A stretch of DNA of 64,000 nucleotides from Candidatus Latescibacterota bacterium (GTDB lineage: Bacteria; Latescibacterota; UBA2968; GCA-2709665), in NCBI GenBank assembly GCA_965248435.1, contig OZ252100.1:1184001-1248000 (forward strand), written 5' to 3'. Position numbers and translations under genes: made by a program. Under the pieces are notes generated by a model, which was not told the origin of the DNA, searched no databases, and saw nothing but the letters and a program-made list of their open reading frames with translations. Positions 24,771-44,960 of this stretch are shown here, in pieces; the first letter of the stretch is position 1, and every line of letters starts with the position of its first letter.

Positions 24771-24920
24771 CGTTACCTCCTTGTTATGACCGCGTGTCGC
24801 AAGTCAGAGAAACAGTACGATTTGAAAACGCCTGTTTTTCATCTTCCAGTCCTCCTGCTATTCCGCGAATATCCAAATTCTTCTTCCGACACAAACCACC
24901 AAAATTTTCGCCACTAAACA

Positions 24921-25241
24921 TTACCCTGGATTCACTCTAAACTTTGTTTGTGTGCGACCTTCCTGCGCTTGTTTCTTCTCCTTCAAATTCGAAGCTAGGT
25001 CCTTTTCTTCCAGCTCTAGATCTTGAACTACTTTTCGCAAGCTCTGCACTTCCTGCTCTGATCCCTGCACTTCACTTTCCAACTCGAGGGTTTTAGCCTC
25101 AAAATCTATTGTTCTAGCTCTGCAATCTATAATCTTCAGTTTTAGCTCACTTACTTCCTGTAATCCATCCCGTATTACTTTCACGGCAAGCCCAATCCCA
25201 ATAACAATCAAGCCAACCAGAAATAGTTCCATCTCTGCCAT
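24921..25241 (-). CDS. Single-TM coiled-coil protein
   Basis: N-terminal hydrophobic helix followed by a heptad-rich charged region. Confidence 0.65.
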   Translation of the reverse strand: MAEMELFLVGLIVIGIGLAVKVIRDGLQEVSELKLKIIDCRARTIDFEAKTLELESEVQGSEQEVQSLRKVVQDLELEEKDLASNLKEKKQAQEGRTQTKFRVNPG

Positions 25242-25605
25242 TCTCTATACCTTGCCTTTGAGTTCCTTTGCCTCTTTCAGTAGTTCTTGCTGTTCAGCAG
25301 CTTTAGCCTTCTCCTTCTTTTCTTGAGCAGAATAACCACCAAGCATTTTGTCAAAGCGACCGATATGTTTTTCAATCGTTGACTTCTTTGCACTAAGCTG
25401 TCTTTTCTCCGCTTGGAGAAGTTTCTGTTTGCCTTCTATTCATTTCCATCTTGGCTGCTTCCAACAGTGTTTTTTCTTGCTTTAGTTTTCTCTCCGAACT
25501 CTTCGTTTTTAGGGCAAGAACGAACTTTCCGATTAAGCATGCTAGAATTGCACCAAATGCAAGAATCTCCATACTTCATCTCCATTACATCAGTTCTACA
25601 AAAGT

Positions 25606-25785
25606 TTAGGATTGCTCTTTAGGTCTTTTCCTTAAACTAGAAATAGGCAGTGATGTCATCGTTTTGTCCTGCATTACCAAAGTTGCACTATCACCTTTAA
25701 TAGAAACCACTTACCAAGGCCCCCAATGAGTGTCATCCTCATCAACGAATTCAACAAAGTGCCCAGGTTTCAGCTCAGTTGTCAT
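25606..25785 (-). pseudogene. Small SH3/KOW-like gene, copy 1, with in-frame TAA
   Basis: MTTELKPGHFVEFVDEDDTHWGPW*VVSIKGDSATLVMQDKTMTSLPISSLRK; the paralog at 36900-37065 has AAA at the stop position. Confidence 0.6.
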
Positions 25786-25889
25786 AGTTGCTTTATTCCT
25801 TCTCTAGCAGCTCCCCTGTGACACCAGCCTGATTTCACCAGCACAAATTCTCCGCCATCCATATCCACACAGAGCCTCTACAAACTAGA

Positions 25890-25929
25890 AGACCAGAGGC
25901 ATCGCCATCCTCACAGAAACGCCCCCGGC
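25890..25929 (-). repeat. Hairpin repeat X, degenerate copy
   Basis: AGACCAGAGGCATCGCCATCCTCACAGAAACGCCCCCGGC; similar to 26406-26464 and 37541-37604. Confidence 0.7.
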
Positions 25930-26405
25930 GTTTGCAACCCGGCAAAGGGATCTCTGTTCCAGACTGCTTAAAGGAAGGGACTGAAAATGTACAATCAGCA
26001 GGTTGCAAAGCGCAACTCCAAAGACGAATTACAGAAGAAGAATTGATTAACGAATGTTCAGGAATCCGCACCTTTGTACTGCAATGTGCACAAGCCCAGT
26101 GGATTGAACCTCCTGAGGACGGATGTCAACTTCAGACACAAATTAGAAGTCAGCTCAAACCGCAATAAATGCCAACCTAGAGGCTCAGAGTTTGCGGATG
26201 GCTATATTCTTTGGCTTTGCGGAAAGCTGCTCGATATAGGTCTCTAATACATTTCGGCATCCCAACTTAGTTCCCTCCTCTCCCCCGAACTCTCGTCTAT
26301 TCTCCTGGCCATCTTATCAACCCATATACAACAACGATGATGCCAACAACTACCAGCACGATAAAAACTGTGTATCATCCATTCTTGAACGCCTAAAAAA
26401 CTGAA

Positions 26406-26464
26406 ACCGGAGACGCCGCCATCCTATAAATAGAAACGCCTCCGGCCACCCCCGACCCGCCCAA
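26406..26464 (-). repeat. Hairpin repeat X
   Basis: On the minus strand, CCGGAGGCG...CGTCTCCGG forms a stem (one G-U pair) followed by a U-rich run. Confidence 0.75.
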
Positions 26465-26604
26465 TGGCAAGCAAGCAAGGCTGTTTCAAAAGTGAAACAA
26501 AAAAGCTCAGCTTAGTGCTCGATCTTCGCAAATCAATCATCAGTTCAATATTAGCAACAACTTACCAAGTGTTCGAGTATCTGCACTCTTGTTCTAAAAT
26601 CTGC

Positions 26605-26707
26605 ACAAAGAAAAAGGCGCCAGCTCTCCGAAAGCCAGCGCCTCAGACCTGACCAAGGGTCTCTTGCCACTGCACTATTCTTATCGTCTGTAGTTCTTGA
26701 GTATTGA
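26605..26707 (-). ncRNA. Repeat Y: sigma28-type promoter, short leader and intrinsic terminator (candidate sRNA)
   Basis: TCAA-N15-GACGATAA, then AGTGGCAAGAGACCCTTG, then GGCGCTGGCT...AGCTGGCGCC-TTTTT. Confidence 0.55.
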
Positions 26708-26820
26708 ATGCTAATCTCCTAAGCAACTTCTGATGATTGGAGTAATAAGGAAATCTGAAATTGCATCGATTCTCATAAGCAAGCTCGAACATCTACCTTT
26801 TCTGTATAGTTCATATTGAA

Positions 26821-27336
26821 CTATCCGAGAGATCCCTCTAGTGTGTATACGAATTCAGTTTCCTTTTTTGAGAGCTTAGATCCCTCGATCTTTTCTGACA
26901 ATTGCTTGTCCACATTTCCAAGGCGTTCACATAGCAGCTCAACAATGTTCCTCAGCGCCTTGACTTCCAGACTTTGATTTTCACTGAATAAAGCGCTCAA
27001 CTTTGCCCTGGAAATAACAAGGCCGCTGGATTTCTCCGACGCTAGCACGTTAGCAGTTCTTGGCTGACCTGTCAGCACTCCCATCTCTCCAGTAGAAGTC
27101 CCAGGAACAATCTCGCCAAGAATAGAACCCGAGTTTGATGTTACCCTTAATTTTCCTTGAAGGAGTATCAACATCTCATCACTCTCCGCTCCTTCTTTGT
27201 ATATCATTTCTCCTGATTGAAGAGATTTGTAATCGCTTATGGTCACAATGAACTCTACCTCTTTGGGTGTGAAATTTCTAAAGACTCTGATTTTTTTGAT
27301 AATTGGCAGTAGACGTCTGTGCAATTCTGGATCCAT
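26821..27336 (-). CDS. Cyclic-nucleotide-binding domain protein
   Basis: IYKEG...MLILLQGKLRV...GEMGVLTGQPRTANV cNMP motif; no HTH. Confidence 0.9.
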   Translation of the reverse strand: MDPELHRRLLPIIKKIRVFRNFTPKEVEFIVTISDYKSLQSGEMIYKEGAESDEMLILLQGKLRVTSNSGSILGEIVPGTSTGEMGVLTGQPRTANVLASEKSSGLVISRAKLSALFSENQSLEVKALRNIVELLCERLGNVDKQLSEKIEGSKLSKKETEFVYTLEGSLG

Positions 27337-27362
27337 TCAGGGTCTATGTTCTTTTTTAAGGC

Positions 27363-30080
27363 CTACGTGAACTCCTGAGCAACTTTATCTTCATCATTGT
27401 TTAGACGAAAAATCACTGAACTTAATTCTTCATTAAGTTGCCTATATAAATCTCCGATCTGCACCGTGACTTTCGGATACGCGATTCCCAAGACCCGGAT
27501 CTTTGCACGTTTACTCTGCTCCAGTCCTTTTCCCTTCAGTTCTCTTATATGGTGTTCGAGGCTTTCCTTCAGCCGAGTGAGCTGTTGCATGTCCTTCAAA
27601 CGGTCAAGCAGGAACTTCTTTTTTTCTTCTGAAGATTCCTTAATTATCTGAAGAAGACGTTGTGTATTATAGCGGCCTCCGCAGACTGACATCAGCGTTC
27701 TCATTATCTGGCGGGAACGCAAGCTATCAAAATCAAGGCCTTCCATATAGCGCTTTATCTTTGACTCTATCTCTAGGTTAAGACCAGAAATCACCTTTGT
27801 CTCTCTCTCGGTTTGAGAGCCGATAGAGTTTGCTTCTACTCCAGAGGTTCCAAGCAAGGTTCCGCCTAAAAGGCATAAGTTCTTAGAGCCCCCCTCGTTA
27901 CCCTGAATAGTAGCCCTTCCGACAACCGCTATTTCAGAATCTTGAGCATAGTTCCTCACTATCATATCCTTACCGACATCCACTTTGGAATCCTGTATAA
28001 ACTTAGCATAAAGGCCGCCTCCAGCCTTCACTCTAGACCCTATGATCCCACCTTGGACAGAGACATCTCCATCTGCTGTAACTATCGCACGCCTCTCAAG
28101 AGTACCGCCTACATAAACGTCTCCTGTAGCCTCAACCTTGAATTTACTCTTAACACTGCCCTGTATTTCCACATCACCTTCGAACTTGATGTTGCCCACT
28201 TCGTAATCCACATCTCCTCGAACTATGAACTTCTGTGTGACTGAAAGGGTGTCTCTACTTAATTTTGCAAATCCTCCAGACGTGGCATAGAACCTCTGCT
28301 CCACTCCTTCTTTCTTCTGAATGACATTTGCCCCTGGAAGCAAAAGATCTTGCTCGGGTTTTGGTGGCTCAAGTGTTTTGCCCCTTACATCTGCCCCAGC
28401 AGTTCCGGGCTCTGCAAATGTTCTTTTTGCAAGAAGCTGTCCGGCCTGGGCTGCAGAAACTCCATCCCTCTCTCTGAAGTCTATCTTCTCACCTTCTAGT
28501 ATTCTGCCTGGATCAGGACCTTGCTTGAACAAGAGCTCTGCCTTACCTTCCTTTCCCAAACCCGGTTTTGTGCCAGTGGCTAAAAGCACTGATATTTCAG
28601 AGTCTTCTCCTCGTGGTAATTCTCTGGATATACCTGCTATCGCATTCTTGTTGATGCCATATTTGATATGAGCTACTTCAAGAAGCTGCTCAACTTCCTC
28701 TTGACGAGGAGGAACAAATCTGTCTTTCTGGGGTAGAGATATGAAGTAGGCTTCTAACTTGTCAGGAGATATCCATATTGGTGAAAGAACTGTGATCTTA
28801 TTTTCAATTATTCCAGGATAACCATAAATTTCTGATATGTAGCGAATCCTGCCTTCATAAGCTTCCCGCCTGACATTAATTCCAGCTTTGTAAGTCTTTT
28901 GTTCTTGCTCTTCTTCTGTTATCGCAACAGGTTCGCCAAAGACGTCAATTCCAGGACCTGAATCCTCGCCTTCTGCTTGTTCTGCCAGCAAAGCACCTGA
29001 ATGAGCGATCGGAACCCTAAGGTCAAAAGTTTCTAAATCATCCTTCCTGGGCAGCTTCAACTTATTTTGTAAATCCTCAAACCTGATCTCGGGAAGAGGC
29101 TCAAATGTGAAACCTATCTTTCCCTTCGATACTTGTGGTTTTTTCCCACGAGCAACTAGAACACAAGACTCCCTCAGATTGCCTGCCGAAAGGTCCTGAC
29201 ACATCTCAGCGATTGTCTTTTCTTCAATTCCCAGGCATACGCCACTTGCTTTGAGATCATCCTGAACCTGCTGAGGAGTGGGATATGCGGGAGTTCCAAG
29301 CTGAGGAGGGTTTACGAAATAGACTTCCATTTTGTCAGAAGAAATCCAAATAGGAGAAATGACAGAAATATGCCTTTCATCAACAGACACATACCCAAAC
29401 CTTGATGCAATTAATAAATTGTCCTTTTCAGTAACACCATCGGCTGGCCTTAGAGAACTCGGGGTTGCCTCAGGGATTGTGTGTATTTTCTTGCCAAAGA
29501 TGTCGATTCCCGGCTCAATCACGTCTTCCCCTTGAACTTCCATCAGAGTCTGCCCGGGAGATACTGCAACTCCTGGCTTTCCATAGCCTCGGATCTTCTC
29601 GATACTTTCCAGCAACATGATTTCGGAAATTTCTCTAAAGATGTGTGAAGCGAGATGAAGTGGCTCGCCTGATTCAGGATCTTTGAGGTCTTTTAAGAAG
29701 GGAAAGCTTGTTTGCATCCTTTTGATATATACCGCAGCCTTTCCCAAAGCCACGAGCACGTCTTTCTGTCTCCTGCCTGTTTCATCTGCTTTAGCCACAG
29801 CCTTTATTAGTGACTCTTCCTGGACCCCTTGTGAGATTCCTTCTATTCTTAGAAGTTCTTGGATTTCCTCAAAGCTAGTAGCAGGAAACACTACTTCAAG
29901 CTTCGCCTCTAGTCTATCAGGAGAAACCAACAGATTGAGTTTGCGATGAGATGGCGGGGCAGACTGCTTTTCCCAGCCAGCGTCTTGATCCTTTTCTCTC
30001 ATCTCCTTTGAGGCTTGGTCCAAAAACTCTTCCAAGGCCTCCTCGGATACTGCATCTGGTTTTTGCTTCTCTTCTGGCAT
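27363..30080 (-). CDS. FapA (DUF342) family protein with repeated N-terminal modules
   Basis: KIDFRE, GDVDYEVGNIKFEGDVEIQG beta-solenoid, repeated SPDxxEA...GI...I units, C-terminal AYPKVTVQIG. Confidence 0.9.
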   Translation of the reverse strand: MPEEKQKPDAVSEEALEEFLDQASKEMREKDQDAGWEKQSAPPSHRKLNLLVSPDRLEAKLEVVFPATSFEEIQELLRIEGISQGVQEESLIKAVAKADETGRRQKDVLVALGKAAVYIKRMQTSFPFLKDLKDPESGEPLHLASHIFREISEIMLLESIEKIRGYGKPGVAVSPGQTLMEVQGEDVIEPGIDIFGKKIHTIPEATPSSLRPADGVTEKDNLLIASRFGYVSVDERHISVISPIWISSDKMEVYFVNPPQLGTPAYPTPQQVQDDLKASGVCLGIEEKTIAEMCQDLSAGNLRESCVLVARGKKPQVSKGKIGFTFEPLPEIRFEDLQNKLKLPRKDDLETFDLRVPIAHSGALLAEQAEGEDSGPGIDVFGEPVAITEEEQEQKTYKAGINVRREAYEGRIRYISEIYGYPGIIENKITVLSPIWISPDKLEAYFISLPQKDRFVPPRQEEVEQLLEVAHIKYGINKNAIAGISRELPRGEDSEISVLLATGTKPGLGKEGKAELLFKQGPDPGRILEGEKIDFRERDGVSAAQAGQLLAKRTFAEPGTAGADVRGKTLEPPKPEQDLLLPGANVIQKKEGVEQRFYATSGGFAKLSRDTLSVTQKFIVRGDVDYEVGNIKFEGDVEIQGSVKSKFKVEATGDVYVGGTLERRAIVTADGDVSVQGGIIGSRVKAGGGLYAKFIQDSKVDVGKDMIVRNYAQDSEIAVVGRATIQGNEGGSKNLCLLGGTLLGTSGVEANSIGSQTERETKVISGLNLEIESKIKRYMEGLDFDSLRSRQIMRTLMSVCGGRYNTQRLLQIIKESSEEKKKFLLDRLKDMQQLTRLKESLEHHIRELKGKGLEQSKRAKIRVLGIAYPKVTVQIGDLYRQLNEELSSVIFRLNNDEDKVAQEFT

Positions 30081-31048
30081 TACTCAGTCCACATCGAAGA
30101 CATTTTCAATACATCTTCTATGTTGCCCTGCCATTCAGGCAATTCCTTTTGAAGCTTGAAATCCACCACGGCAAAGCCCATATAGGGAAGAAATTCTTCC
30201 AATTCCTCAAGTTCTTGATAGCTTAGCAAAACGTTCTGGCTTTTCCTGTCAACTTCAAGAATCGCGATAATTTCGTCGACTCTGGCTATAGGAAACATTC
30301 CAAAACAGAATATCCCATTACTACGCCTAAAATCACCTGGGTCATCGACCGTAAATCCCCTCCGTTGCTGGCATATTTTTGCAATACTCTCTTTCGTTTT
30401 CGCTTCCTTGTCCAGACCTGTGGAGTTTGAGAACCCTGTTGCCTCACTTAGTTCAGCACAGCCCTTCTCATCTACCATATAGAGAGCTCCTGCCTCACAC
30501 TCAGCCAAGCTACAGGCTAACCCCAGGGCCAAACGCAGATTATCGCCTGGAGGATTAATTGAAAGTAACGACCTCAATAGCTCGTCTCTTGCTTTCAATT
30601 GCCTAACAAGTTTCTTTAACTCTTCAGTTCTTTCCTCTACTTTAATCTCTAAGTCTCTTTGATATTCTTTGTTTCCCAGCGAAAATTGTCTGTGCTGCAG
30701 TGCACGTTTCACAGATGCCATAACATCACTTATGTCAAACGGCTTAACGAAATATTCGTAAATGCCAATTGAGATTGCTTTTCTAGCGCTCTCTAATTCA
30801 GCATACGCCGTCATCATCAACACAGGTCTATCAGCGTCCTGTTCTAAGAGTTTCTGAGAGAGGGAGAGGCCATCCATTTCTTTCATTCTAAAATCTGTGA
30901 TGATAAGGTCAAACCTATCTCCTCCTACGACCTCAAGAGCCTCTTCAGCACTTTCAGCTTCCTCTACTGAATATCCTACCTGCCTTAGCAATCTGCTCAA
31001 CATCTCTCTCACAGTCTCTTCATCGTCAACCACAAGGATTTTAGACAT
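30080..31048 (-). CDS. Response regulator with coiled coil and GAF-like output domain
   Basis: ILVVDDE, ITDFRM, MMTAY, VKPF; LEIKVEERTEEL linker. Confidence 0.9.
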   Translation of the reverse strand: MSKILVVDDEETVREMLSRLLRQVGYSVEEAESAEEALEVVGGDRFDLIITDFRMKEMDGLSLSQKLLEQDADRPVLMMTAYAELESARKAISIGIYEYFVKPFDISDVMASVKRALQHRQFSLGNKEYQRDLEIKVEERTEELKKLVRQLKARDELLRSLLSINPPGDNLRLALGLACSLAECEAGALYMVDEKGCAELSEATGFSNSTGLDKEAKTKESIAKICQQRRGFTVDDPGDFRRSNGIFCFGMFPIARVDEIIAILEVDRKSQNVLLSYQELEELEEFLPYMGFAVVDFKLQKELPEWQGNIEDVLKMSSMWTE

Positions 31049-31085
31049 ATCAGCGCTCCGAATTTCATAATGAGAGGATGAGAAA

Positions 31086-33038
31086 CTATGAACTTCTCTT
31101 AGATGGTTCTAGAGCTTCCTCAATGGTCTTTGCAATCTTTTCCATTCTAAGTGGTTTTTCTATGAAGCCCACGATGTCAGTTGGAAGTTCAAAATCAAGC
31201 TCCACCCCAGTGATGTAGCCACTCATAGCAGCGATAGGCACATCTTTGTCAATCTCACGAACAAACTTGATAAAATTAAAACCGCTAACCTCGGGCAAAA
31301 CTAGATCTGTAAGCACAAGTGCAATCTCGTTTCTTAACTCTTTAAACAATTCCGTTCCCTCCTGTCCATCTTTGGCGGCAACGACTTCGTATCCGAGACT
31401 CTCCAGCATGGCCTGCGCAACCCTAAGCACTTCTGGTTCGTCTTCTACAACTAAGATTTTTCCTCCTCGTCCTTTCTCCAAATCCTCTGTCTTTTCTCCC
31501 TCTAGGACTTGCTCCCTCTCTGCTTTTGGAAGATATATTGTGAAGATGGTTCCAGATCCTTCCGCACTCTCAGCATCGATAAATCCTTTATGTTGCTTGA
31601 TAATGCCATAGACCTGTGCCATTCCTAGACCAGTCCCATTTTGCCTAGCTTTTGTCGTAAAGAACGGCTCGTAGATATTTGCAAGAACTTCCTTGGACAT
31701 ACCACAACCTGTATCCTTAACAGCCAGCACAACCCACTCTCCTTCTCCAATCCTTATTCTTCTTCCTGACTTTACATCACGAACCCATCTCCTCTCTTCC
31801 TTTTCGATTTTAGATGAAGACAGCTCAATTCCCAACTCTCCTCCGTCCGGCATCGCATCCTTGGCATTTAAAGCTAGGTTAGTTATGACTTGTTGAAGTT
31901 GCGTTAGGTTTGTATTAACCAAACACCTTTCATCATCAAATCCTGTTACAAGCTGAATATCCGCCGGCAAAGTTCTCTGCAAGAGCTTTGTGGTTTCCCT
32001 CAGGAACGGAACTATATTCACCACTTGCTTCTGCACAACTGTTTTTCGACTGAAATCCAGCACTTGCCGAATCAGCTGAGAAGCTCTTTCTCCCTGATTC
32101 ATGATTGTTTCCAGTTCTTCCTTAGCAGAACCAGAGATGTCTTGCTTGTAGAGAAGCATCTGGGCGGTCCCCATAATTACTGTGAGCAAGTTGTTAAAAT
32201 CATGCGAGATACCCGCTGCCATTTGACCAACAGCAGCAAGCCTTTCCTGCTCTTTTGCTCTCTCCTCCCTCTGTTTTTCTTCTATAATGTCACGTGAAAC
32301 TCCCATCACACCTACAGCCTCACCCTGGGCGTTACGTAGAATAGAGGCGGACATACGGCTCGGGAAAAGCTCGCCGTTCTTCCGTTTGTTCACCACTTCC
32401 TTCACAAGCCTACCTCTTTGTATTGTTGTTCTGTGCACATTGTGCCCTTCATCAGCTTCAGCATACAGCAAGCTTACGTGTTTACCCAAGACATCTTCTG
32501 ACCGATACCCAAATGTCTCCTGCGCCGCTCTGTTAAATTCTGTGATGCGTCTGTCGTTGTCGACTGCAATGATCATGTCCAGGGAGCTGTCGATGATATT
32601 TCTCGAATATTCTTGCGACGCCTTTAACGCTTCCTCTACCTGCTTTCGCCTGCTGATATCCCGAGTGATGCCAAAGAGACCGGTCACCTGCCCCTTCTTG
32701 TCCTTTATTGGCACTTTGGTGTTTGAATACCACCGCACGCTTCCATCTTTCTTAACCATCTTGACATCAAGGTCAACTATAGAGAGTCCAGACTTAATAA
32801 CCTCTTGTTCAGCACTATAAGCCTGAGTTGATATCTTGTCCGTGAGGAAATCAAAAGATGTTTTGCCGATGGCGTCCTGCGGATCTTCTATGCCCAAGAT
32901 CTCCTGAGCTTGCGTCCTGTTGATCTTAACGAATCGAGAAGCAGTGTCTTTAAAGTAGATGGCGTCAGGACTGTAGTCCATCAACGCTTGTAACAGCTCG
33001 AGTTCCTGCTTCAGATGCTCTTCGTTGTGTTGGCTCAC
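31086..33038 (-). CDS. Hybrid PAS-PAS histidine kinase with C-terminal receiver
   Basis: Two PAS/PAC domains, H-box AGISHDFNNLL, N-box NAKDAM, G boxes DTGCGM and GTGLG, receiver ILVVEDE...LTDLVLP. Confidence 0.95.
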   Translation of the reverse strand: MSQHNEEHLKQELELLQALMDYSPDAIYFKDTASRFVKINRTQAQEILGIEDPQDAIGKTSFDFLTDKISTQAYSAEQEVIKSGLSIVDLDVKMVKKDGSVRWYSNTKVPIKDKKGQVTGLFGITRDISRRKQVEEALKASQEYSRNIIDSSLDMIIAVDNDRRITEFNRAAQETFGYRSEDVLGKHVSLLYAEADEGHNVHRTTIQRGRLVKEVVNKRKNGELFPSRMSASILRNAQGEAVGVMGVSRDIIEEKQREERAKEQERLAAVGQMAAGISHDFNNLLTVIMGTAQMLLYKQDISGSAKEELETIMNQGERASQLIRQVLDFSRKTVVQKQVVNIVPFLRETTKLLQRTLPADIQLVTGFDDERCLVNTNLTQLQQVITNLALNAKDAMPDGGELGIELSSSKIEKEERRWVRDVKSGRRIRIGEGEWVVLAVKDTGCGMSKEVLANIYEPFFTTKARQNGTGLGMAQVYGIIKQHKGFIDAESAEGSGTIFTIYLPKAEREQVLEGEKTEDLEKGRGGKILVVEDEPEVLRVAQAMLESLGYEVVAAKDGQEGTELFKELRNEIALVLTDLVLPEVSGFNFIKFVREIDKDVPIAAMSGYITGVELDFELPTDIVGFIEKPLRMEKIAKTIEEALEPSKRSS

Positions 33039-33323
33039 AGTGACCCCCTTTGAGCTAGCTTTTCAACACTCAAACAAACTTGCTCTTGATGCGTATTCGT
33101 AGCCACAAATCAAGATGATTTTATTCCTACAAATCATCCACCTCTGTAGCATTCAGACGGCATATGTTGCATGGTGCAACTTTCAGTCCGAAAAAAATAT
33201 GGATTAGCAAACCTCTGCTGAAACAATCTGGAATCTGAAAAACAATCGAGGGCACCACCATGGCACAGTGGTTAGACGCCCCCGATCGTCTACCTGCGTA
33301 ACTGCTCGGCTACTCAGAAGAAA

Positions 33324-33409
33324 ATAAAAAAGGCCACACTTCCCCAACGAAAGTGCAGCCGCCAAGCTGTTCCGCATAGGAATATATGGAGCAGTCTAAA
33401 CTTTGTCCA
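33324..33409 (-). promoter_or_regulatory. Sigma70-like promoter followed by a short leader ending in a terminator hairpin
   Basis: TGGACA-N17-TATATT, then GGCTGCACTTTC...GAAGTGTGGCC-TTTTTT. Confidence 0.5.
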
Positions 33410-33599
33410 AGGCAATAATCATAAATTCTCTCCTTTTATTTTGAAATTGTTCAAGGAGCGGCACTACTGTTTACGAATCCGCACAAGAAATGCTCTGATT
33501 AAGATCCAATACTCTTTATTTTGACCAGAATCACTTACTATGGACGCACCAAAAAGTAGAATTCTTGATGCCGGACTTGAGACGAGAAATTTCATATAC

Positions 33600-34178
33600 C
33601 TAATCGCCACTAGCCGACAGCTTCTTTAAAGCCCAATCAGTAATAGCAAGGATATCAGCAAGCACAAATGGTTTCTGCAAATAATAGCTCGCGCCTAACT
33701 CCAGGATTCCTCTACGCACCATTGAATAAGTTCCAGGTCCAGAGTTAAGGATGATCTTCGAGTGAGGAGAAGTTTCCTTTATAGCCTCCACTACTTGTAA
33801 TCCAGAAACGTATATTGCTTCATCACCAAGTTTTATGTCGACAAAGGCAATGTCTACAGTCAGATTATTTATGAGAGACATGGCTGTCTGACCGGAAGAA
33901 CAAACGAAAATGGCGTCTTCAGGATAACCGAATTCTACCAACGCAGATTTCAGAAAGTCAGTTACTTGCTCGTCATCATCCACTATGAGAAGTATTGGTG
34001 CCCTGGCAATGAAATTCAATCTATCTGGTAATGCCAAGGCTTGCTCAAGATCTCTTGACTTAAAAATCTGAATTAGGTTTTCCAAGTCTTCATACTGTTG
34101 CATTTCAGGATCTATCTTAGCTTCTTCATAGCATCTAATGCTAAATTCGTGAGACATCCTTTCTCCCATACAAAGCAA
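33600..34178 (-). CDS. Receiver-domain protein with N-terminal extension
   Basis: LLIVDDDE, AFVDIKL, LQKPF. Confidence 0.85.
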   Translation of the reverse strand: MLCMGERMSHEFSIRCYEEAKIDPEMQQYEDLENLIQIFKSRDLEQALALPDRLNFIARAPILLIVDDDEQVTDFLKSALVEFGYPEDAIFVCSSGQTAMSLINNLTVDIAFVDIKLGDEAIYVSGLQVVEAIKETSPHSKIILNSGPGTYSMVRRGILELGASYYLQKPFVLADILAITDWALKKLSASGD

Positions 34179-34194
34179 AAAGTCTTCTCATCTG

Positions 34195-34905
34195 CTAATC
34201 AATGTTTTGTCCAAATTTTACGCGGTATTCGCTAGGAGACATCCCTTCGAGTCTATGGAAAGTAGCTGTAAGATGACGGTAATTCCTAAAGCCGCATCTT
34301 TGTGCAACTATATGAAGTCGTTCATTGCTGGATTTCATAAGTGCTTTTGCTTTCTCAACACGATAGTATGCTAATCGTCTTCTAAATGTCATCCCAATGT
34401 GTTCTTTGAACAACTTAGATACATATCTATCTGAAATTTTGAAGTTCCTGGAAATATCACCTAATATTAATTCAGAATTAGATGCGTTGGCCCTAACAAA
34501 AGCATCTAACTCACTGGCCAGTGGGTGTTCTGATGGATAATGCTTCGCGAGCAACCTCTCAATAGCATCTATTAACTCTTCTGCCTTGAATGGTTTTGTC
34601 AGAAAGTCCTTAGCACCGCTTCTCATTGCTTTTACGGTCCTAGGTATGGTGCCGTGCCCTGTTAAAATAAGTACATCAGTTTCAATCCCTCTCTCTTGAG
34701 CTGCCTGCAAAACCTGCATACCGCAAATGTGTGGCATCCTTAGGTCCAAAACAGCCACGTCAAAGTGCTTGCTAGAGAGAAGATCAAGTGCCTCTCTACC
34801 ATCCCTGGCTAATTCAACAACCCAGGATTGAGAGCTGAGTGCTTGTGTGATGAACTCAAGAACTATGGGCTCATCATCTGCTATGAGAATTCTGGGCTGT
34901 GGCAT
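34195..34905 (-). CDS. Response regulator with AraC-type HTH (paralog 1)
   Basis: MPQPRILIADDE receiver and VAQRCGFRNYRHLTATFHRLEGMSPSEYR AraC HTH; start inferred from the paralog. Confidence 0.9.
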   Translation of the reverse strand: MPQPRILIADDEPIVLEFITQALSSQSWVVELARDGREALDLLSSKHFDVAVLDLRMPHICGMQVLQAAQERGIETDVLILTGHGTIPRTVKAMRSGAKDFLTKPFKAEELIDAIERLLAKHYPSEHPLASELDAFVRANASNSELILGDISRNFKISDRYVSKLFKEHIGMTFRRRLAYYRVEKAKALMKSSNERLHIVAQRCGFRNYRHLTATFHRLEGMSPSEYRVKFGQNID

Positions 34906-35006
34906 CTGACTGCTCTTTTTGATTCTCAATTTCCATCTTGGAAACGCCCTGACCTCTGTCAATTCTTGCCCCAAAGCAGATAATTATCTTACGATAGATC
35001 TCCTCC

Positions 35007-35369
35007 TTATATCAAATACACCTTGGCGGCTGCATCTAAGCAGTCCTCTATTGTTCCTTCTTGAAGATCTCTATAATTGCTGTACTTTTGAATGTCAGAC
35101 TTGTAGATCAGAAATCTCCACTTATTAGGTCCCAAATACTCCAGCCTGGCTAATCTGGCTATTCCTCTTACACTACCCATTTTGAAGATCCTTCCAACAA
35201 GACCTTCTTTCTCCTCCTTCACTACTTCTAGAAAGAGATGGTTGCCTTTGAAGTGTCCGCGAATCTCTTTCACCCCTTGCCTTCCTATGTAGTGTTTCTT
35301 AGCGTGAGTTTCTAATCGACTGAGTGTCAGCTTCTTGTTTTCATCAGAAGGAATACTAACGGGTGACAT
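35007..35369 (-). CDS. Hypothetical protein (DUF3024-like)
   Basis: FKGNHLFL...RLARLEYLGPNKWRFLIYK pattern. Confidence 0.6.
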   Translation of the reverse strand: MSPVSIPSDENKKLTLSRLETHAKKHYIGRQGVKEIRGHFKGNHLFLEVVKEEKEGLVGRIFKMGSVRGIARLARLEYLGPNKWRFLIYKSDIQKYSNYRDLQEGTIEDCLDAAAKVYLI

Positions 35370-35414
35370 CCTTGGCTATCCTTTCCAGATCAGTGACATT
35401 TGCATCTGGTTAGA

Positions 35415-35780
35415 TCAGCGAAGAGCCTTTTGAACAGCTTCAATCAAGCCTGAAAGCCCGAAGGGTTTTGGAAGGAAATGTCTAATACCTAACTTTCTTA
35501 GATGTTCAATTAGAGAATTGTTCAGATAGCCAGATATTATGAGCACTGGGGTTTCTAGATCCTGACGTTCAAAAAGCTGGGCCACGTCTGTTCCATCAAT
35601 ACCCGGCATATTTAGGTCTAGTGTAATAAGTCCGTAATCACCTGACAGGGCATTTTCAATACAGGTGGCTAGATGAGGCTTGGCATCCACTTCATAACCA
35701 CAGCCTGTCAAAAGCGTTTCAATTACGTCGCGAATACCTTCCTCGTCTTCAACCATTAAAATTCGTTTAGCTTTCGACAT
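35415..35780 (-). CDS. Single-domain response regulator
   Basis: ILMVEDE, TLDLNMP, IISG, PKPF. Confidence 0.9.
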   Translation of the reverse strand: MSKAKRILMVEDEEGIRDVIETLLTGCGYEVDAKPHLATCIENALSGDYGLITLDLNMPGIDGTDVAQLFERQDLETPVLIISGYLNNSLIEHLRKLGIRHFLPKPFGLSGLIEAVQKALR

Positions 35781-36044
35781 TAAAATATCAGAGATTTAAT
35801 TGACGGACAAAGAACACTAATATAAGTTTCCCTGATCAGGTACTTATAGCCCGTGACAAGAGTCACATTGTAACCCTACTGGCAATCTTTTTTCTACAGA
35901 ACTGAAACAATTGTTCGGGTTTCTGCATCTCTTGGTCATGTATCTGAACAATTTCAACCAGCCAACAAAAAAGCCGAAGATTAAACAAAATCCCGGCTCT
36001 AGATTGACGATATATCAAAGAGAAGTTGCCAATACTACCTCCAT

Positions 36045-36083
36045 AGCAAAGGCGCTGGGTTATCTTCTTCCAGCGCCTTTGCT
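36045..36083. terminator. 14-bp perfect hairpin downstream of merR
   Basis: AGCAAAGGCGCTGG / CCAGCGCCTTTGCT. Confidence 0.65.
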
Positions 36084-36119
36084 CCTCAGATCGGGATAGT
36101 AATAAGCTCAGTCTCAGTC

Positions 36120-36551
36120 CTAGGCAGAACTTCCTGAATCATCTTCTAAGGCTTCGAGAATAGGGCATTCGCTAGTAGGACCACGGCCAGAGCAGAGAGC
36201 AATTAGCTTGGAAAGTGCCTGTTTCATTGCCTGAAGGGTTTGGACCCTATCTTCAATATCATCGACTTTAGCGTTTGCCTTTTTTCTGACTTGATCACAA
36301 GTCCTATCTGAATCTACCCGTAATTCAAGTAGCTCTGAGATCTCATTAAGGGTGAAGCCCAGTCCCTGGGCACGCTTGATGAACCTGATCCTCGAAACAT
36401 CCTCCTGAGAGTATTCCCGGTGACCAGACGCCTTTTTAGGCGGCTGAGACACGAGTCCCCGTCGCTGATAATAGCGAATTGTTTCAACGTTCACCTCGAC
36501 CTTCTTAGCGACTTGACCAATCTTTAGCGTTTTAACTTTCTCAGCCATCAT
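36120..36551 (-). CDS. merR: MerR-family heavy-metal-responsive regulator (Hg(II)-type)
   Basis: IGQVAK...VETIRYYQRRGL HTH; Cys triad in TCDQ, ALCSG and ECPIL. Confidence 0.85.
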   Translation of the reverse strand: MMAEKVKTLKIGQVAKKVEVNVETIRYYQRRGLVSQPPKKASGHREYSQEDVSRIRFIKRAQGLGFTLNEISELLELRVDSDRTCDQVRKKANAKVDDIEDRVQTLQAMKQALSKLIALCSGRGPTSECPILEALEDDSGSSA

Positions 36552-36555
36552 AAAA

Positions 36556-36586
36556 AATATAATGCCGTACCTAGGTACAGAATCAA
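36556..36586 (-). promoter_or_regulatory. MerR-type sigma70 promoter with dyad operator
   Basis: TTGATT-N19-TATATT, with CTGTACCTAGGTACGG dyad in the spacer. Confidence 0.85.
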
Positions 36587-36679
36587 GACAAATCTTGGAA
36601 TTTCGAAGTGCTTTAGCGAAGTTTCCTCAAACGCCCGCTCCTCTTAGGTTCACTTTTCCGCACTCTTGTTTACGAATCG

Positions 36680-36781
36680 GCACAAGAAAAGGCGCTGGCC
36701 TTTAACGGCCAACGCCTTAACCAAAACAAGGGGTCTTCTGTCGCTTCTTTGTTTTTATCGACTGTAATTCGAAAACATTTA
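36680..36781 (-). ncRNA. Repeat Y: sigma28-type promoter, leader and terminator
   Basis: TAAA-N15-GTCGATAA, then GACAGAAGACCCCTTG, then AAGGCGTTGGCC...GGCCAGCGCC-TTTT. Confidence 0.6.
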
Positions 36782-36899
36782 GTCCTTGAAGCCTTCACCA
36801 AAGAACTTTAAAATTGAATCGGGATCGGGCTTCTTTGTCAAAGTACTTTGAAAGAGAAGAAACAAGTTCACGATTATGGGAGAGTATTGCTATCTATTA

Positions 36900-37065
36900 T
36901 TCTCAACTTTTTCTAAACTAGAAATAGGTAATCGTGTCATTGATCTTCTGGAGTTTCAACTGTTGCTTTATCTCCAGAAATAGAAAGCACTTTGCAAGGC
37001 TCACAAAGAGTACCATTCTCATCAACGAATTCAACAAAGTCCCCAGGTTTCAGCTCAGTTGCCAT
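36900..37065 (-). pseudogene. Small SH3/KOW-like gene, copy 2, frameshifted
   Basis: MATELKPGDFVEFVDENG...KVLSISGDKATV; the MTRLPISSLEK tail is out of frame by one nt relative to copy 1. Confidence 0.55.
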
Positions 37066-37100
37066 ATTTTCTCTAAGCTTCACGATAAACTTCTAAATCA

Positions 37101-37460
37101 TCAATCCTCTTCCAATAGTTGTCTTACAACTTCCAGCAGTGCTTTCATACGAAGGGGTTTTTCAAGGATGCGATCAGCTCCTAATTCCTTAGCCTTGAGA
37201 AGCACTTCTTGTCCTCCAGCACCTACCGCAATGATTCTTACTTTCGGATAGTCTTTTCTAAGCTCCGTTATAACATCTAGCCCATCTTTCCTTGGCATAA
37301 AAATATCTGTGATAACTAGATCTGCTTGCTCCTGATGGAATAGACGTAGTCCCTCCTCACCATCAAGTGCTTCCGTGACTTGATGCCCCCTTGTGTGAAG
37401 CATTTCCCGCAACACTTCCCGGTTCGTCAGTTCATCTTCAATAACAAGGATGCGTGCCAA
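37101..37460 (-). CDS. Single-domain response regulator
   Basis: ILVIEDE, ITDIFMP, EKPL. Confidence 0.9.
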   Translation of the reverse strand: MARILVIEDELTNREVLREMLHTRGHQVTEALDGEEGLRLFHQEQADLVITDIFMPRKDGLDVITELRKDYPKVRIIAVGAGGQEVLLKAKELGADRILEKPLRMKALLEVVRQLLEED

Positions 37461-37540
37461 TCCAAATTACCATTTCTCCCCGACCAATATGCTTTCTCTA
37501 CTAGCATCTCCATTGAAGCTAGTGTTTTGATGCAAATAAA

Positions 37541-37641
37541 AGACCAGAGACGCCGCCATCCTCATAGAAACGCCTCCGGCCATATACCCCCGACCTGCCG
37601 CCAAACTAAACTCAATATAATCCTCAATTTTTAATAGTCAA
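37541..37641 (-). repeat. Hairpin repeat X with upstream sigma70-like promoter
   Basis: TTGACT-N16-TATATT, then GGCGGCAGGTCGGGGG...CCGGAGGCGTTTCT...GGCGTCTCTGG-TCTTTT. Confidence 0.7.
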
Positions 37642-37685
37642 CCTGTAAAAATGGTCGGTCAAGAAACAGATTTGGTTCGAAACCT

Positions 37686-37757
37686 GCACAAAAAAGAGGC
37701 GCTAACTCTCCAACACCAGCGCCCTTCCTCAATCAAGGGGTCTCTTGCCACTTCATA
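37686..37757 (-). terminator. Repeat Y copy directly after the AraC-type regulator
   Basis: AGTGGCAAGAGACCCCTTG...GGCGCTGGT...AGTTAGCGCC-TCTTTTTT; the promoter part is degenerate. Confidence 0.65.
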
Positions 37758-38492
37758 TCATCTGATGCTTAGCTCGTGAGACACCTTGTCCTTTAGGATG
37801 AAATCCCTGCGAAACCCTCTTGGAGTTATTCCCTCTAATCTTTGGAAAGTAGACGTAAGCTGGCGATAATTTCTAAAACCGCACTTCTCTGCAATTACAT
37901 AAAAAGGCTCATCGCTGCACCTAATGAGATGCTTTGCCCTTTTTACGCGATAGAAGGCCAAGCGTCTTCTGAATTTCATTCCCACTTCATTTCTAAATAA
38001 TCTGGATGCATATCTCGTTGAGATCCCGAAATGCGCGCATATGTCACCTAACTTCAACCCAGGCTCTGAATAGTGGTCTCTCACAAAAGCTTCCAATTTA
38101 TTTGCAAGTGGATGCGTTGATGAATGACGTTTGGCAATCAGGTTCTTTATGGAACCTATTAACTCATCTGCCTTAAAGGGTTTTGTTAGGAAGTCCTTGA
38201 CTCCTTTCTTAATCGCTGAGACAGCAACTTCTACGGTCCCATAGCCTGTCAGAATAAGAAGATCAGTTTCAATTCCTCTCCCTTGCACCTCTTCCAAAAC
38301 CTGCATCCCATTAAGATGTGGCATCTCCAGGTCGAGAACTGCCACATCAAAGTGCTGGCTGGAAAGCAGATCAAGTGCTTCTCTCCCATCTTTTGCTAAT
38401 TCAACAACCCAAGGTTGGGAGCTGAGTGCCTGTCTGATGAACTCAAGAACTGTAGGCTCATCATCGGCTATGAGAATTTTGGGTTGTGGCAT
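37758..38492 (-). CDS. Response regulator with AraC-type HTH (paralog 2)
   Basis: Close paralog of 34195-34905, including about 40 nt of conserved upstream sequence. Confidence 0.9.
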   Translation of the reverse strand: MPQPKILIADDEPTVLEFIRQALSSQPWVVELAKDGREALDLLSSQHFDVAVLDLEMPHLNGMQVLEEVQGRGIETDLLILTGYGTVEVAVSAIKKGVKDFLTKPFKADELIGSIKNLIAKRHSSTHPLANKLEAFVRDHYSEPGLKLGDICAHFGISTRYASRLFRNEVGMKFRRRLAFYRVKRAKHLIRCSDEPFYVIAEKCGFRNYRQLTSTFQRLEGITPRGFRRDFILKDKVSHELSIR

Positions 38493-38632
38493 CTAGCTAC
38501 TCTTTTGATTCTTAATTTCCGTCCTGAAAATACTCTGATCTTGTTGCTTCGTGCAAGTCGGCGCCTTAGAGGTCTCCTCTTGTCACTTCAATATATTTAT
38601 CGTCTGTGATCCTTGGTAATCCAATGCTTAAT

Positions 38633-38980
38633 TTATTCCTCTCCCATAACATCCTCAATAGCCTTACTTAAATCTTGAAGCTTAAATGGCTTTTGAAGAA
38701 AGCTAAGTGCTCCAGCTTCTTTAGCTGGTTCTGCTATCTCTTCGGAGAATATACCAGAGATGGCAATTATTCTCGCTCCATTATCATAGCTCTTTAGTTC
38801 TTTAATCACTTCAAGCCCGTCTTTTCCTGGCAATCCCATATCTACGAACACCACGTCTGGATTTTCTTGATGGTAAAGCTCAATACCTTCCTCTCCATTA
38901 TGCGCCAGATAAACTTCATAACCCTCTGAATTCAAGCTGCTCTTGAACAGCTCTCTAACTGGAGCGTTATCATCTATCAC
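38633..38980 (-). CDS. Single-domain response regulator; start may lie slightly upstream
   Basis: IDDN, FVDMGLP, AISG, QKPF. Confidence 0.9.
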   Translation of the reverse strand: MIDDNAPVRELFKSSLNSEGYEVYLAHNGEEGIELYHQENPDVVFVDMGLPGKDGLEVIKELKSYDNGARIIAISGIFSEEIAEPAKEAGALSFLQKPFKLQDLSKAIEDVMGEE

Positions 38981-39009
38981 AAGAATTGTTGGGAGCCGAG
39001 ACAGATATC

Positions 39010-39375
39010 TTACTTTCCTCCAACAATCCCGGATGCAATTGCTTCACGCAACACACTTGGTTTAAAAGGCTTTTTAAGAACTGCAACAGGTTCTAAATGC
39101 TGTAAGGCTTGCTCAAACTCTGGCAGATGTAAGAACGCTGATAGGATAATGAAAGGAATCTTTTCAGGAAGCATCTCAATGAGTTCTTTACCGTGACACC
39201 CCGGCATCTTCAAATCTGTAATAACAAGCTCAATCTTCTCCTCACCTACTAATATCTGAGAAACCGCATCAAAGCCACTATCCGCCTCAACCAAATCATA
39301 GTGTTGGTCAAGCACGCGATGCAAGAGTTTTCTAAGGTCTACATCATAACCCACTATCAGAATACAAGGTTTCAT
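39010..39375 (-). CDS. Single-domain response regulator with degenerate acidic pocket
   Basis: ILIVGYD instead of ILIVDD; ITDLKMP and KKPF retained. Confidence 0.85.
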   Translation of the reverse strand: MKPCILIVGYDVDLRKLLHRVLDQHYDLVEADSGFDAVSQILVGEEKIELVITDLKMPGCHGKELIEMLPEKIPFIILSAFLHLPEFEQALQHLEPVAVLKKPFKPSVLREAIASGIVGGK

Positions 39376-39469
39376 CTCTTCGCCTTATTCTCTTTGGACC
39401 ATCTTACTAGCTCATAGAGAAAGATACCGATGCACGGAATTAGCAGAATTAGGAAGGGTGTAAAGCCAT

Positions 39470-39787
39470 TCATTTCTTTCCCTCAGCTTCTCCATCTCTA
39501 GGCTTAGCAAATTCTTCCTTCAACGTCTTTCCAGGTCTAAAACTCACCTTTCTTCGGGCCGGAACATACACTCTCTCTCCAGTGCTCGGATTGCGGGCAT
39601 TGGGATTAGCCCTTACTTCTCGTACTCTCCAAACACCAAACCCTCTAATCTCAATTCTGTCTCCCTGAATAACAGCCTCGGTCATAGCCTTCACTACTGT
39701 ATCCACCATAAGCTTCGCTTTTCTCTGAGTGATGTTGCACTTCTTAGCAATAACTTTACAAAAATCTAGTTTGGTGATTGTTGCCAA
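39470..39787 (-). CDS. HU/IHF-family DNA-binding protein
   Basis: GDRIEIRGFGVW...ARNPSTGERVYVPARRKVSFRPGK. Confidence 0.95.
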   Translation of the reverse strand: MATITKLDFCKVIAKKCNITQRKAKLMVDTVVKAMTEAVIQGDRIEIRGFGVWRVREVRANPNARNPSTGERVYVPARRKVSFRPGKTLKEEFAKPRDGEAEGKK

Positions 39788-39936
39788 CTCTACCTCAGAT
39801 CATAAAGAAAAAGGCACACCTCTCATCAAGTGCACCTCAATAATTCTGGCTTTCTCCCTCCCGATGAGAGAACTGGGATCGACATAAATATATGTTTCGA
39901 CTGTTGGAATTGTCAACTTGAAAGTAGAATCTTTAG

Positions 39937-40242
39937 CTACTCATACCCTTGCTCTTCCACTCTTTGCAGAATTGCCTTAAGCCTTCTACTCATTGTCCGA
40001 ATCAGTTTTGAGTTTTCAAAGTAAAGAAAAGCATCACACACAGCCCCAGGTCCAAAGGCATAGCCTTCACAAGGTGTAAAGTTATCAACTTCAGGAATCC
40101 AGGGCTTGTAATTCGCATCTACCCTTTGTCCTCTGCCACACATCCTCTTCTCTATCTCTCTCGGCAAAATACCTTGGTTGTAAAATCCACAATCACTATG
40201 GTATTTGCATCTTGCTGGCTCTTTGTATTGTTCATCTGGCAT
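39937..40242 (-). CDS. Cys-containing hypothetical protein
   Basis: 101-aa ORF; TTCTTAAG TATA-like box 30 nt upstream and no SD. Confidence 0.55.
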   Translation of the reverse strand: MPDEQYKEPARCKYHSDCGFYNQGILPREIEKRMCGRGQRVDANYKPWIPEVDNFTPCEGYAFGPGAVCDAFLYFENSKLIRTMSRRLKAILQRVEEQGYE

Positions 40243-40368
40243 TCACTCTTAATGGACTTTCCAGCTTAAGAAATTCTTTGCAGGTATTAGTGTAGCGATT
40301 GTAGGACAGAAGATGCAAAAGAGAGGATTAACTCTCTTGGCTTCTGTCTTTCTACTCTCAATACAAAG

Positions 40369-40400
40369 AAAGCAACCTTTATAAAAGCAACCTTTATATA
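40369..40400 (+). promoter_or_regulatory. Tandemly duplicated archaeal BRE-TATA promoter
   Basis: AAAGCAACCTTTATA twice (40369-40383, 40384-40398), ending in TTTATATA about 30 nt before ATG 40426. Confidence 0.7.
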
Positions 40401-40425
40401 TACGTTTCCCCCTTCCTTAACATAG

Positions 40426-40872
40426 ATGTTTCATAACAAAGAGAAGGTGATATTTGTAATTCTAAGTCTTGTATTTCTCATAGGTGCTGGGTGTGAACAG
40501 GAAAAGATTGAAAAACTCATTACCGATATTATTGAATGTGAGAACATTCCTAACTTGCATAAGAGGGGTGAGTGTTTAGATGATTTTTATTTGCAGCAGG
40601 CTCTAGATAACGATGATAGTAGTATTTGCAATCTAATTACAGATCCTTCAGTTAGAGAAAGTTGTGAAGCCGCATTTGTCATAGGATTTGAAGAGTCTGT
40701 TGTAGAAAATGCTTTGGCTGATGCAAGCTTGTGTGATGAATTAGAAGAAGAGCTGCGACAAGATTGCCTTGATGATTATTACTTTAACCAGGTTATTGAG
40801 ACTGATGATCTAGGTTTTTGTAATCAAATTAATGATGGAGAACTGAGAAAGGTTTGCCAGGAGCTAGAATGA
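40426..40872 (+). CDS. Secreted acidic Cys-repeat protein (DPANN/CPR-like)
   Basis: Hydrophobic leader ending GAGC; repeated D..xC..I.D..R..C units. Confidence 0.75.
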   Translation: MFHNKEKVIFVILSLVFLIGAGCEQEKIEKLITDIIECENIPNLHKRGECLDDFYLQQALDNDDSSICNLITDPSVRESCEAAFVIGFEESVVENALADASLCDELEEELRQDCLDDYYFNQVIETDDLGFCNQINDGELRKVCQELE

Positions 40873-44018: not shown

Positions 44019-44095
44019 TATTGCTAAGGGGTGAATAACAAGACCCTGAAAGAGCCTCAGAGCCTTTTAGGGGGATGTTCTATGTCTAAGCGAAC

Positions 44096-44467: not shown

Positions 44468-44479
44468 CTCTTTTCATCC

Positions 44480-44941: not shown

Positions 44942-44960
44942 CTCCTCTCTTTACCTCCTT

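Follow-up and report, generated by a model that had tools for sequence, protein, structure and literature searches.

A 13-kb gene cluster of a Candidatus Latescibacterota bacterium, at positions 26821-39787 of the 64,000-nt stretch of DNA analysed here (contig OZ252100.1, positions 1,184,001 to 1,248,000; hereinafter the window), encodes a hybrid histidine kinase, a response regulator with receiver (REC) and GAF domains and a long FapA protein. It is well supported that the cluster belongs to the cargo of an integrative island that was acquired horizontally, and equally so that these three genes form a module typical of flagellated Latescibacterota, of which the island carries a mobile extra copy. 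With moderate confidence, we read this copy as a route by which phosphorylation and cyclic-nucleotide signals reach a motor regulator of the FapA type. The parts are known; what is new is their arrangement, and the system is not of a novel kind.

All 14 genes called from open reading frames (ORFs) at 26821-39787 lie on the minus strand, as does the next gene (39937-40242). By Pfam, the cluster contains nine REC domains, one histidine kinase, two REC-AraC paralogs, FapA, a cyclic nucleoside monophosphate (cNMP)-binding protein, MerR and HU; HisKA and HATPase_c occur together in one cluster protein only, and five of the nine REC proteins are receiver-only or nearly so. An initial annotation made from the sequence alone had described the same inventory, and it was also right that structural flagellar and chemotaxis genes are absent, no such families being recognized by Pfam among the 52 window ORFs scanned. 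In transcription order, the genes encode HU, REC121b, REC115, a 244-amino-acid (aa) REC-AraC, REC119, MerR, REC121a, a 120-aa protein, a second REC-AraC (259-aa ORF), REC192, the hybrid kinase, REC-GAF, FapA (905 aa) and the cNMP-binding protein (171 aa). A single 13,487-bp contig spans 26659-40145 with zero differences in three of four sequencing runs and one difference in the fourth, all four coming from one sample that is possibly the source sample.

A kinase, REC-GAF and FapA module with native counterparts

The core module closes the cluster. Its hybrid kinase (31086-33038, 650 aa) has a PAS-PAS-HisKA-HATPase-REC architecture by Pfam and the hallmarks of the HisKA type, namely an H-box with the phospho-His ('SHDFNN' in the translation), HATPase_c and a receiver with its Asp. 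The REC-GAF response regulator (30080-31048, 322 aa; REC E 9e-30) follows, and its stop codon overlaps the FapA start by 1 nt, which suggests coupled translation of the two proteins. The long FapA (27363-30080, 905 aa) matches FapA_N (PF20250) in three stretches (E 1.5e-55; 187.8 bits, cut-off 27) and FapA (PF03961; E 2.8e-49; 168.6 bits, cut-off 31). The final gene encodes a 171-aa protein (26821-27336, hereinafter cNMP171) with PF00027 (E 6e-18) as its only, stand-alone domain; unlike transcription factors of the CRP/FNR type, it lacks a C-terminal helix-turn-helix, and Pfam found no other DNA-binding output in it.

In an AlphaFold2 model of the long FapA (mean predicted local distance difference test score, pLDDT, 81.7), three alpha+beta/beta repeats (residues ~50-240, 244-432 and 435-615) are followed by beta-solenoid strands (617-765), a C-terminal helical hairpin (769-858) and a small beta domain (860-904), with a predicted template modelling score (pTM) of 0.41 that makes the placement of the domains unreliable. 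The modelled order of solenoid, two-helix hairpin and small beta domain matches that of the FapA clutch of Borrelia burgdorferi (BB0267) in the passages that describe it, and the Pfam domains of the Borrelia, Vibrio vulnificus and Helicobacter pylori FapA proteins are present here far above their cut-offs. Unlike the known proteins, the island FapA has three FapA_N-type repeats in its 905 aa, and its gene forms, together with those for a hybrid kinase and REC-GAF, a conserved operon-like trio accompanied by a cyclic-nucleotide gene; no such input is mentioned in the passages of the published accounts available to us. Against the PDB, a sequence search with the long FapA gave weak MinC matches only, and Foldseek gave no match at E <= 0.001.

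The trio recurs in native DNA. The host has nine FapA-family genes, and its two long paralogs share 51% and 47% identity with the island copy; upstream of each of them (loci L012 and L013) lie genes for a hybrid kinase and REC-GAF, in DNA of native GC content and sequence signature. In all, hybrid kinase, REC-GAF and long FapA occur together in seven loci: the island, L012, L013, L014, L015, L016 and L050. The REC-GAF of L012 (C1:2,821,001-2,841,000, C1 being the contig that holds the window) is split into ORFs of 101 aa and 257 aa, and in L013 a His-less REC-HATPase gene comes after FapA. In L014 and L015, both from Latescibacterota metagenome-assembled genomes (MAGs), the order is hybrid kinase, REC-GAF, long FapA and REC-Guanylate_cyc; L016 (Latescibacterota, 41.7% GC) has a PAS kinase, REC-GAF and FapA, and L050 (Latescibacterota) has REC-GAF and long FapA followed by an HNOBA hybrid kinase. 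The GC content of the modules in L012-L015 is like that of their flanks. Of the eight loci with a FapA that shares 30% or more identity with that of the island, seven have a REC-GAF gene directly upstream of it, and Pfam detects GAF in 17 of the 19 listed full-length REC-GAF orthologs (P0035-P0051, P0054 and P0056; 35-51% identical). The initial annotation had stated that the same gene order in an ordinary bacterial chromosome of matching composition would refute its idea of a collected kit; that order is found for the core trio (L012-L016) and not for the whole 13 kb.

The module of L012 is flanked by two IS30-like genes whose Pfam scores are identical and resembles a composite transposon, with a 23S-rRNA-IVP-family gene before FapA. 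In L014 (OZ252228.1) and L015 (CBDCJO010000002.1), both single-contig MAGs, the long FapA frame is broken into two or three ORFs, which may reflect assembly indels.

In a quick maximum-likelihood tree, in which the island row is of deviant amino-acid composition, the island FapA groups with four metagenomic proteins (Shimodaira-Hasegawa-like approximate likelihood ratio test, SH-aLRT, 99), apart from both native paralogs. The best external identities, 52% for FapA and 51% for REC-GAF, imply that no close donor has been sampled. Viral contigs yielded 0 relatives of the long FapA, and the 17 plasmid records found hold distant FapA only (~25-32% identity for the best 8 of the 17), none of them covering 80% of the query. 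Genome contigs searched with a single FapA sequence gave nothing, and a FapA alignment was needed as the query to find the loci. A full-text literature search returned no title on a kinase/REC-GAF/FapA module, the name DUF342 being swamped by DUF342x matches.

Island setting and mosaic structure

The composition of the cluster departs strongly from that of the host genome (5.67 Mb in 2 contigs, 56.6% GC). Its GC content is 43.6%, and CTAG occurs at 37 sites (2.85/kb; observed/expected ratio, O/E, 0.78), compared with 0.64/kb (O/E 0.17) for the chromosome, a frequency 4.5 times that of the host genome. Tetranucleotide frequencies of the cluster correlate with those of the core genome at r = 0.50, compared with a mean r of 0.92 (standard deviation 0.05, minimum 0.75) for 59 random native 13-kb segments, and with those of the surrounding island and of a second island at r = 0.90-0.93. 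The surrounding low-GC island (hereinafter island A) measures ~85 kb (C1 ~1,175,000-1,260,000; 45.3% GC, CTAG 2.7/kb). Its left border is sharp and lies directly after tRNA-Ala(GGC), itself downstream of ligA, and a tyrosine integrase (PF00589; phrog_1, E 4e-60) is encoded ~2 kb inside; a second integrase-like gene is weak. The GC content, the tetranucleotide comparison, the tRNA-Ala site and the integrase bear out the earlier suggestion of foreign DNA, and the abundance of CTAG that had been noticed by eye is real. The CTAG excess marks DNA that has not been ameliorated to a CTAG-avoiding host; it does not show the long residence outside the donor at which the annotation had hinted.

A PHROGs search found no phage structural gene set, giving isolated weak terminase-like and tail-like matches only, and Pfam scans recognized no conjugation genes. 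Island A shares with tRNA-integrated islands a tRNA-Ala border, a tyrosine integrase, deviant GC and oligonucleotide composition, defence-type and hypothetical cargo and a diverged second copy at another tRNA. It is unlike them in that attR, a phage structural set and conjugation genes were not found, and a signalling cargo as dense as nine receivers is unusual.

The diverged second copy (island B; C1:5,552,501-5,630,000; 77.5 kb, 45.9% GC) ends at tRNA-Glu(CTC), and its backbone is 83-89% (about 85%) identical to island A at the nucleotide level by blastn. The stretches common to both islands are, in window positions, 40389-46367, 39526-40253 with the HU and 101-aa pair, 36959-37505 with REC119 and part of a small ORF, and 24921-25789. 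The HU/IHF-like DNA-binding protein (39470-39787; PF00216, E 2e-25) and the Cys-rich 101-aa protein (39937-40242; 92% identical in island B) are backbone genes; the latter, which matches no Pfam or NCBIfam family, serves as a backbone marker and was detected in 2 of the 151 genomes of the phylum, the host included, and in 0 of the 18 genomes sampled from the host's family.

In island B, REC119, the small ORF and a 106-aa gene are contiguous, whereas in island A ~11.3 kb lies between two copies of the small ORF (25625-25795 and 36907-37075; 78% nucleotide identity, both with stops). The segment so bounded, placed at 25679-37069 on the minus strand by blastn of the two islands and self-comparison, is absent from island B and carries the genes for MerR, REC121a, the 120-aa protein, one REC-AraC and REC192, together with the kinase/REC-GAF/FapA/cNMP module. 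The cluster is a mosaic, with four receiver genes and HU belonging to the backbone and five receiver domains having arrived with the 11.3-kb segment. Alternatively, island B may have lost the segment through recombination between the repeats, either course being possible. No joint skipping the segment was present in the contigs of the four runs of one sample, from which rare variants could escape. The idea of a collected kit in the initial annotation can be kept for DNA that is foreign, mobile and assembled from a backbone plus an insert, but not for the core, which is a lineage-typical module also found in native DNA.

The small ORF reads 'M[AT]TELKPG.FVEFVD..' and has a third copy in island B. 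Within island B (L045, C1:5,594,001-5,610,000), an IS30-like gene is inserted in one receiver gene, and there is an additional 195-aa AraC-type ORF. Other genes of the window are of defence type or hypothetical: PIN, RadC, two HerA-like ATPases and a fragment of an N6 methylase are encoded at 11-20 kb, and DUF6884, a 212-aa unknown, SIR2_2 and a nucleoside 2-deoxyribosyltransferase-like gene form a row at 49723-52803 that resembles a defence system. The far part of the low-GC stretch (55022-63949 and locus L002; 47-55% GC) encodes an AcrB-type pump, penicillin amidase and nonribosomal peptide synthetase (NRPS) modules, and may be a separate insertion.

Receivers, transcription units and selection

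Within the 11.3-kb segment, the genes upstream of the core module encode REC192, a receiver with a 60-aa N-terminal extension (33600-34178; PF00072, E 7.5e-17), a REC-AraC whose 259-aa ORF (34195-34974) likely starts at an internal Met to give ~236 aa, the 120-aa protein (35007-35369), the single-domain receiver REC121a (35415-35780; PF00072, E 1e-21) and a MerR-family regulator of the metal-sensing type with Cys residues close to its C-terminus (36120-36551). The 120-aa protein has no Pfam or NCBIfam family and a weak atlas lead to DUF3024 (score 0.85); MerR clearly contains the Pfam MerR domains and scores 146.2 bits against the NCBIfam equivalog TIGR02051, whose cut-off is 150.85. The backbone receivers are the single-domain REC119 (37101-37460) and REC115 (38633-38980), the 244-aa REC-AraC (37758-38492) and REC121b (39010-39375; PF00072, E 4e-14), which has GY in place of DD. 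The listed GTG start of REC115, its first ATG/GTG/TTG (38980-39012), removes strand beta-1, and in-frame codons upstream read '..PTILVIDD'; translation may start at a rare codon (ATT/CTG) or through coupling to the upstream gene, or the start may have been lost.

Minus-strand terminator-like hairpins lie before HU, after the 244-aa REC-AraC, after REC119, between REC192 and the kinase, and after the cNMP gene. They divide the cluster into at least four units, indicating that the region is co-oriented without being one operon. An intergenic cassette, composed of a conserved stretch of ~50 nt, a hairpin with a T-run and a conserved motif of ~40 nt, is found at 36640-36800 on the minus strand, with further copies at 26570-26730 and 37680-37757 and partial copies at 33449-33491, 38560-38632 and 26056-26098. 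These three to six copies come after units, and the motif, which consists of two GTGCnGA half-sites ~20 nt apart, lies past the terminators and precedes three units; position weight matrix and fuzzy searches place it in island A only. It is a guess that the REC-AraC proteins bind this motif. We considered integron cassettes as an explanation for the hairpin elements and dropped it, as the ends (GTTC..) do not fit the GTTRRRY core.

A different, GC-rich conserved hairpin (18 predicted pairs, one compensatory change) with a T-rich run occurs in the window at 37525-37605, 26390-26470 and 25868-25945, and elsewhere at C1:830,382, 5,602,128 and 2,044,103. In three cases it stands in the leader of a single-domain receiver gene, and it resembles a terminator or attenuator. 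Over 24000-41000, Rfam at E <= 1 gave a chance long noncoding RNA match only.

By alignment, all nine receivers retain the phospho-acceptor Asp and the Lys. Seven also have both the acidic pair and the conserved Thr/Ser; of the remaining two, REC121b is without the former and REC119 without the latter. Except in the AraC pair (74% over the receiver), pairwise identities do not exceed 39%, so the receivers are not a recent tandem array. The REC-AraC paralogs are 64% identical in amino acids and 72% in nucleotides, and self-comparison traces them to a duplication (repeat D8; 34232-34955 and 37819-38541, 72% nucleotide identity) that carried along the first codons of the next, REC192-like gene, now the C-terminal tail of the 244-aa copy. 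A hidden Markov model built from the nine cluster receivers finds 153 REC domains on the host chromosome, a mean of ~0.35 per 13 kb; the cluster is the densest 13-kb stretch with nine, and the runners-up have six.

With one kinase for nine receivers, five of which stand alone, the cluster could be taken for phosphate sinks or decoys collected by a mobile element to drain or rewire host phosphorelays, as the initial annotation proposed. Multi-CheY chemotaxis systems of the Sinorhizobium/Rhodobacter type have phosphate-sink CheY. The cluster resembles such systems in that stand-alone CheY-like receivers outnumber kinases, and the foreign, integrated state of the DNA and the phospho-acceptor Asp kept in all nine receivers would suit a sink. 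It differs in that its kinase is a PAS hybrid of the HisKA type, and CheA, CheW, methyl-accepting chemotaxis proteins (MCP), CheR and CheB were not found by Pfam among the 52 window ORFs. Nor was Hpt found among 15 cluster proteins, apart from a weak sub-cut-off HPTransfase match in the ATPase region of the kinase, the genome beyond the cluster not having been searched. The known setting of sinks is thus missing, and with no CheA, CheW, MCP or Hpt detected nothing specific points to them. Moreover, the receivers are mutually divergent, each has a host paralog in an ordinary signalling neighbourhood, the core trio is native and conserved, and the units are separated by terminators. As the host has at least 153 receivers plus dozens of kinase-like matches, orphan receivers are normal in it. 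We consider the sink explanation improbable.

The signs of decay in the cluster are limited to the small repeated ORF with stops in both copies, the truncated remnant left by the REC-AraC duplication and possibly the REC115 start, which has no canonical codon ahead of beta-1. Together with the residues missing from REC121b and REC119, they would fit hitch-hiker DNA whose duplicated receivers have been drifting since transfer. All 14 large ORFs are intact, however, and the Asp and Lys persist in every receiver. Ratios of nonsynonymous to synonymous substitution rates (dN/dS, Nei-Gojobori) in five paralog pairs range from 0.12 to 0.19, at dS up to 1.9: between islands A and B they are 0.12 for REC119 (91% aa identity), 0.15 for the 101-aa gene and 0.19 for HU (68-71% aa identity), and they are 0.16 between the two REC-AraC copies and 0.13 between REC-AraC and a copy at 0.83 Mb. 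These values, from a comparison that the initial annotation had itself proposed, indicate purifying selection on the cluster genes and speak against neutral decay of the receivers. We consider the drift scenario very improbable.

FapA, FliG and a putative tie to motility

Nearly every other cluster gene has a host paralog, 41-81% identical by tblastn, and several of these adjoin FapA or FliG genes. The REC121a paralog (69% identical; L044) is divergent from a 690-aa FapA gene that another receiver follows. The REC-AraC proteins have paralogs at 0.83 Mb (59-64%) and 2.85 Mb (51-53%), each adjoined by a single-domain receiver, and the 120-aa protein has one at C1:1.537 Mb (81%). A native locus (L043, C1:2,539,001-2,557,000, GC 55.9%) with the order REC, HU, REC-REC, REC, cNMP, FliG, REC, FliG holds paralogs of REC192 (47%, C1:2.544 Mb), REC119 (48%), cNMP171 (45%, C1:2.545 Mb) and HU (42%). 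Since the accessory proteins resemble paralogs adjoining FapA, FliG, cNMP-binding or HU genes, the accessory receivers and REC-AraC regulators most likely plug into the same motility or behaviour network and into transcription of the island's units. The two full-length fliG paralogs of that native locus are interleaved with receivers, away from other flagellar genes.

The host has eight FliG_C matches as well as flagellin and MotA/ExbB-family matches, and a receiver gene lies within 2.5 kb of seven of its nine FapA-family genes, compared with 12% of random 7-kb windows. Among 21 genomes of the host's family, PF03961 and FliG_C occur in the same four, and both are absent from the sole other genome (4.1 Mb) of the genus to which the host belongs.

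Passages of a 2026 preprint describe how Borrelia FapA uses its beta-solenoid and coiled coil to bind beneath the MotA pentamer and masks the surface that contacts FliG, a clutch by which flagellar stators are uncoupled from the rotor, and its authors state that the control of FapA is unknown (bioRxiv 10.64898/2026.10.14.759253). In the passages of a second, PF03961 is widespread in flagellated bacteria, and deletion of fapA in H. pylori raised soft-agar migration (bioRxiv 10.64898/2026.10.23.761471).

From gene context and these two preprints, we infer that the module may act on the motor. The kinase would sense a signal through its PAS domains and phosphorylate REC-GAF, which would in turn set the state of FapA. 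A cyclic nucleotide, read by the GAF domain, the cNMP-binding protein or both, would be a second input on FapA, for which the REC-cyclase of the relatives would be the nucleotide source. The target of FapA would then be the flagellar stator, as reported for the Borrelia protein, with the other receivers and the two REC-AraC regulators as accessories. Phosphotransfer partners, protein contacts, cyclic-nucleotide binding and motor effect are thus all putative. A complex prediction for REC-GAF with FapA residues 429-905, run with no controls, scored 0.24 and 0.18, where the mark is 0.32. A narrower version, in which flagellated Latescibacterota use a hybrid kinase acting on a REC-GAF that docks on a triple-repeat FapA clutch, with input from a cyclic nucleotide that an adjacent REC-cyclase makes or a stand-alone cNMP-binding protein reads, and in which the unit, along with accessory CheY-like receivers and REC-AraC regulators, is mobile on an island and the motor re-programmable by transfer, is possible but doubtful.

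Several observations weigh against the proposed module or its island origin. No exact 14-mer of the tRNA 3' end occurs at the far border of island A (best blastn-short match 13 nt, E 0.31), and the right border is fuzzy, fading through NRPS, insertion sequence (IS) and patatin genes. In one locus (L051), kinases and DUF6901 are present without REC-GAF, and none of the four loci scanned from a more distant long-FapA clade (25-29% identity; L052, L053, L055 and L056) has adjacent two-component genes, so that the coupling is clade-specific. The fourth module gene varies, being cNMP-binding in the island and a REC-cyclase, a REC-HATPase or an IS element elsewhere. The GAF domain of the island REC-GAF is weakly detected (E 0.0015), no Hpt was found among the cluster proteins, and the upstream receivers, given their separate units, need not work with the cluster kinase. 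FapA may also have a role in polarity or division, as its solenoid weakly resembles MinC: MinC_C matches weakly in the solenoids of two native FapA paralogs and in the PDB sequence search.

This last resemblance also fits a broader alternative, in which the cluster is regulatory cargo of an ordinary sort, unconnected with motility. The two REC-AraC proteins, MerR and the HU/IHF-like protein would control island genes, in line with the island-restricted motif that follows terminators ahead of three units, and the FapA module would serve polarity, division or another output. We regard it as rather unlikely. It does not account for the exact co-occurrence of FapA and FliG in the family sample or for the paralogs of accessory genes next to fliG and FapA genes, and the published FapA proteins act, in the passages cited, at flagellar motors. 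We retain the reading of an island-borne module whose signals go to a motor regulator of the FapA type.

Should the link to the motor not hold, the cluster is still ordinary, though unusually receiver-dense, genomic-island cargo. The trio of long FapA, sensor kinase and REC-GAF, together with the cyclic-nucleotide genes, provides concrete, purifiable candidates for the control of FapA, and a complete signalling unit of the kinase/REC-GAF/FapA sort can be cargo of an island. Should the narrower docking version prove true, the unit would represent the missing upstream control of the clutch.

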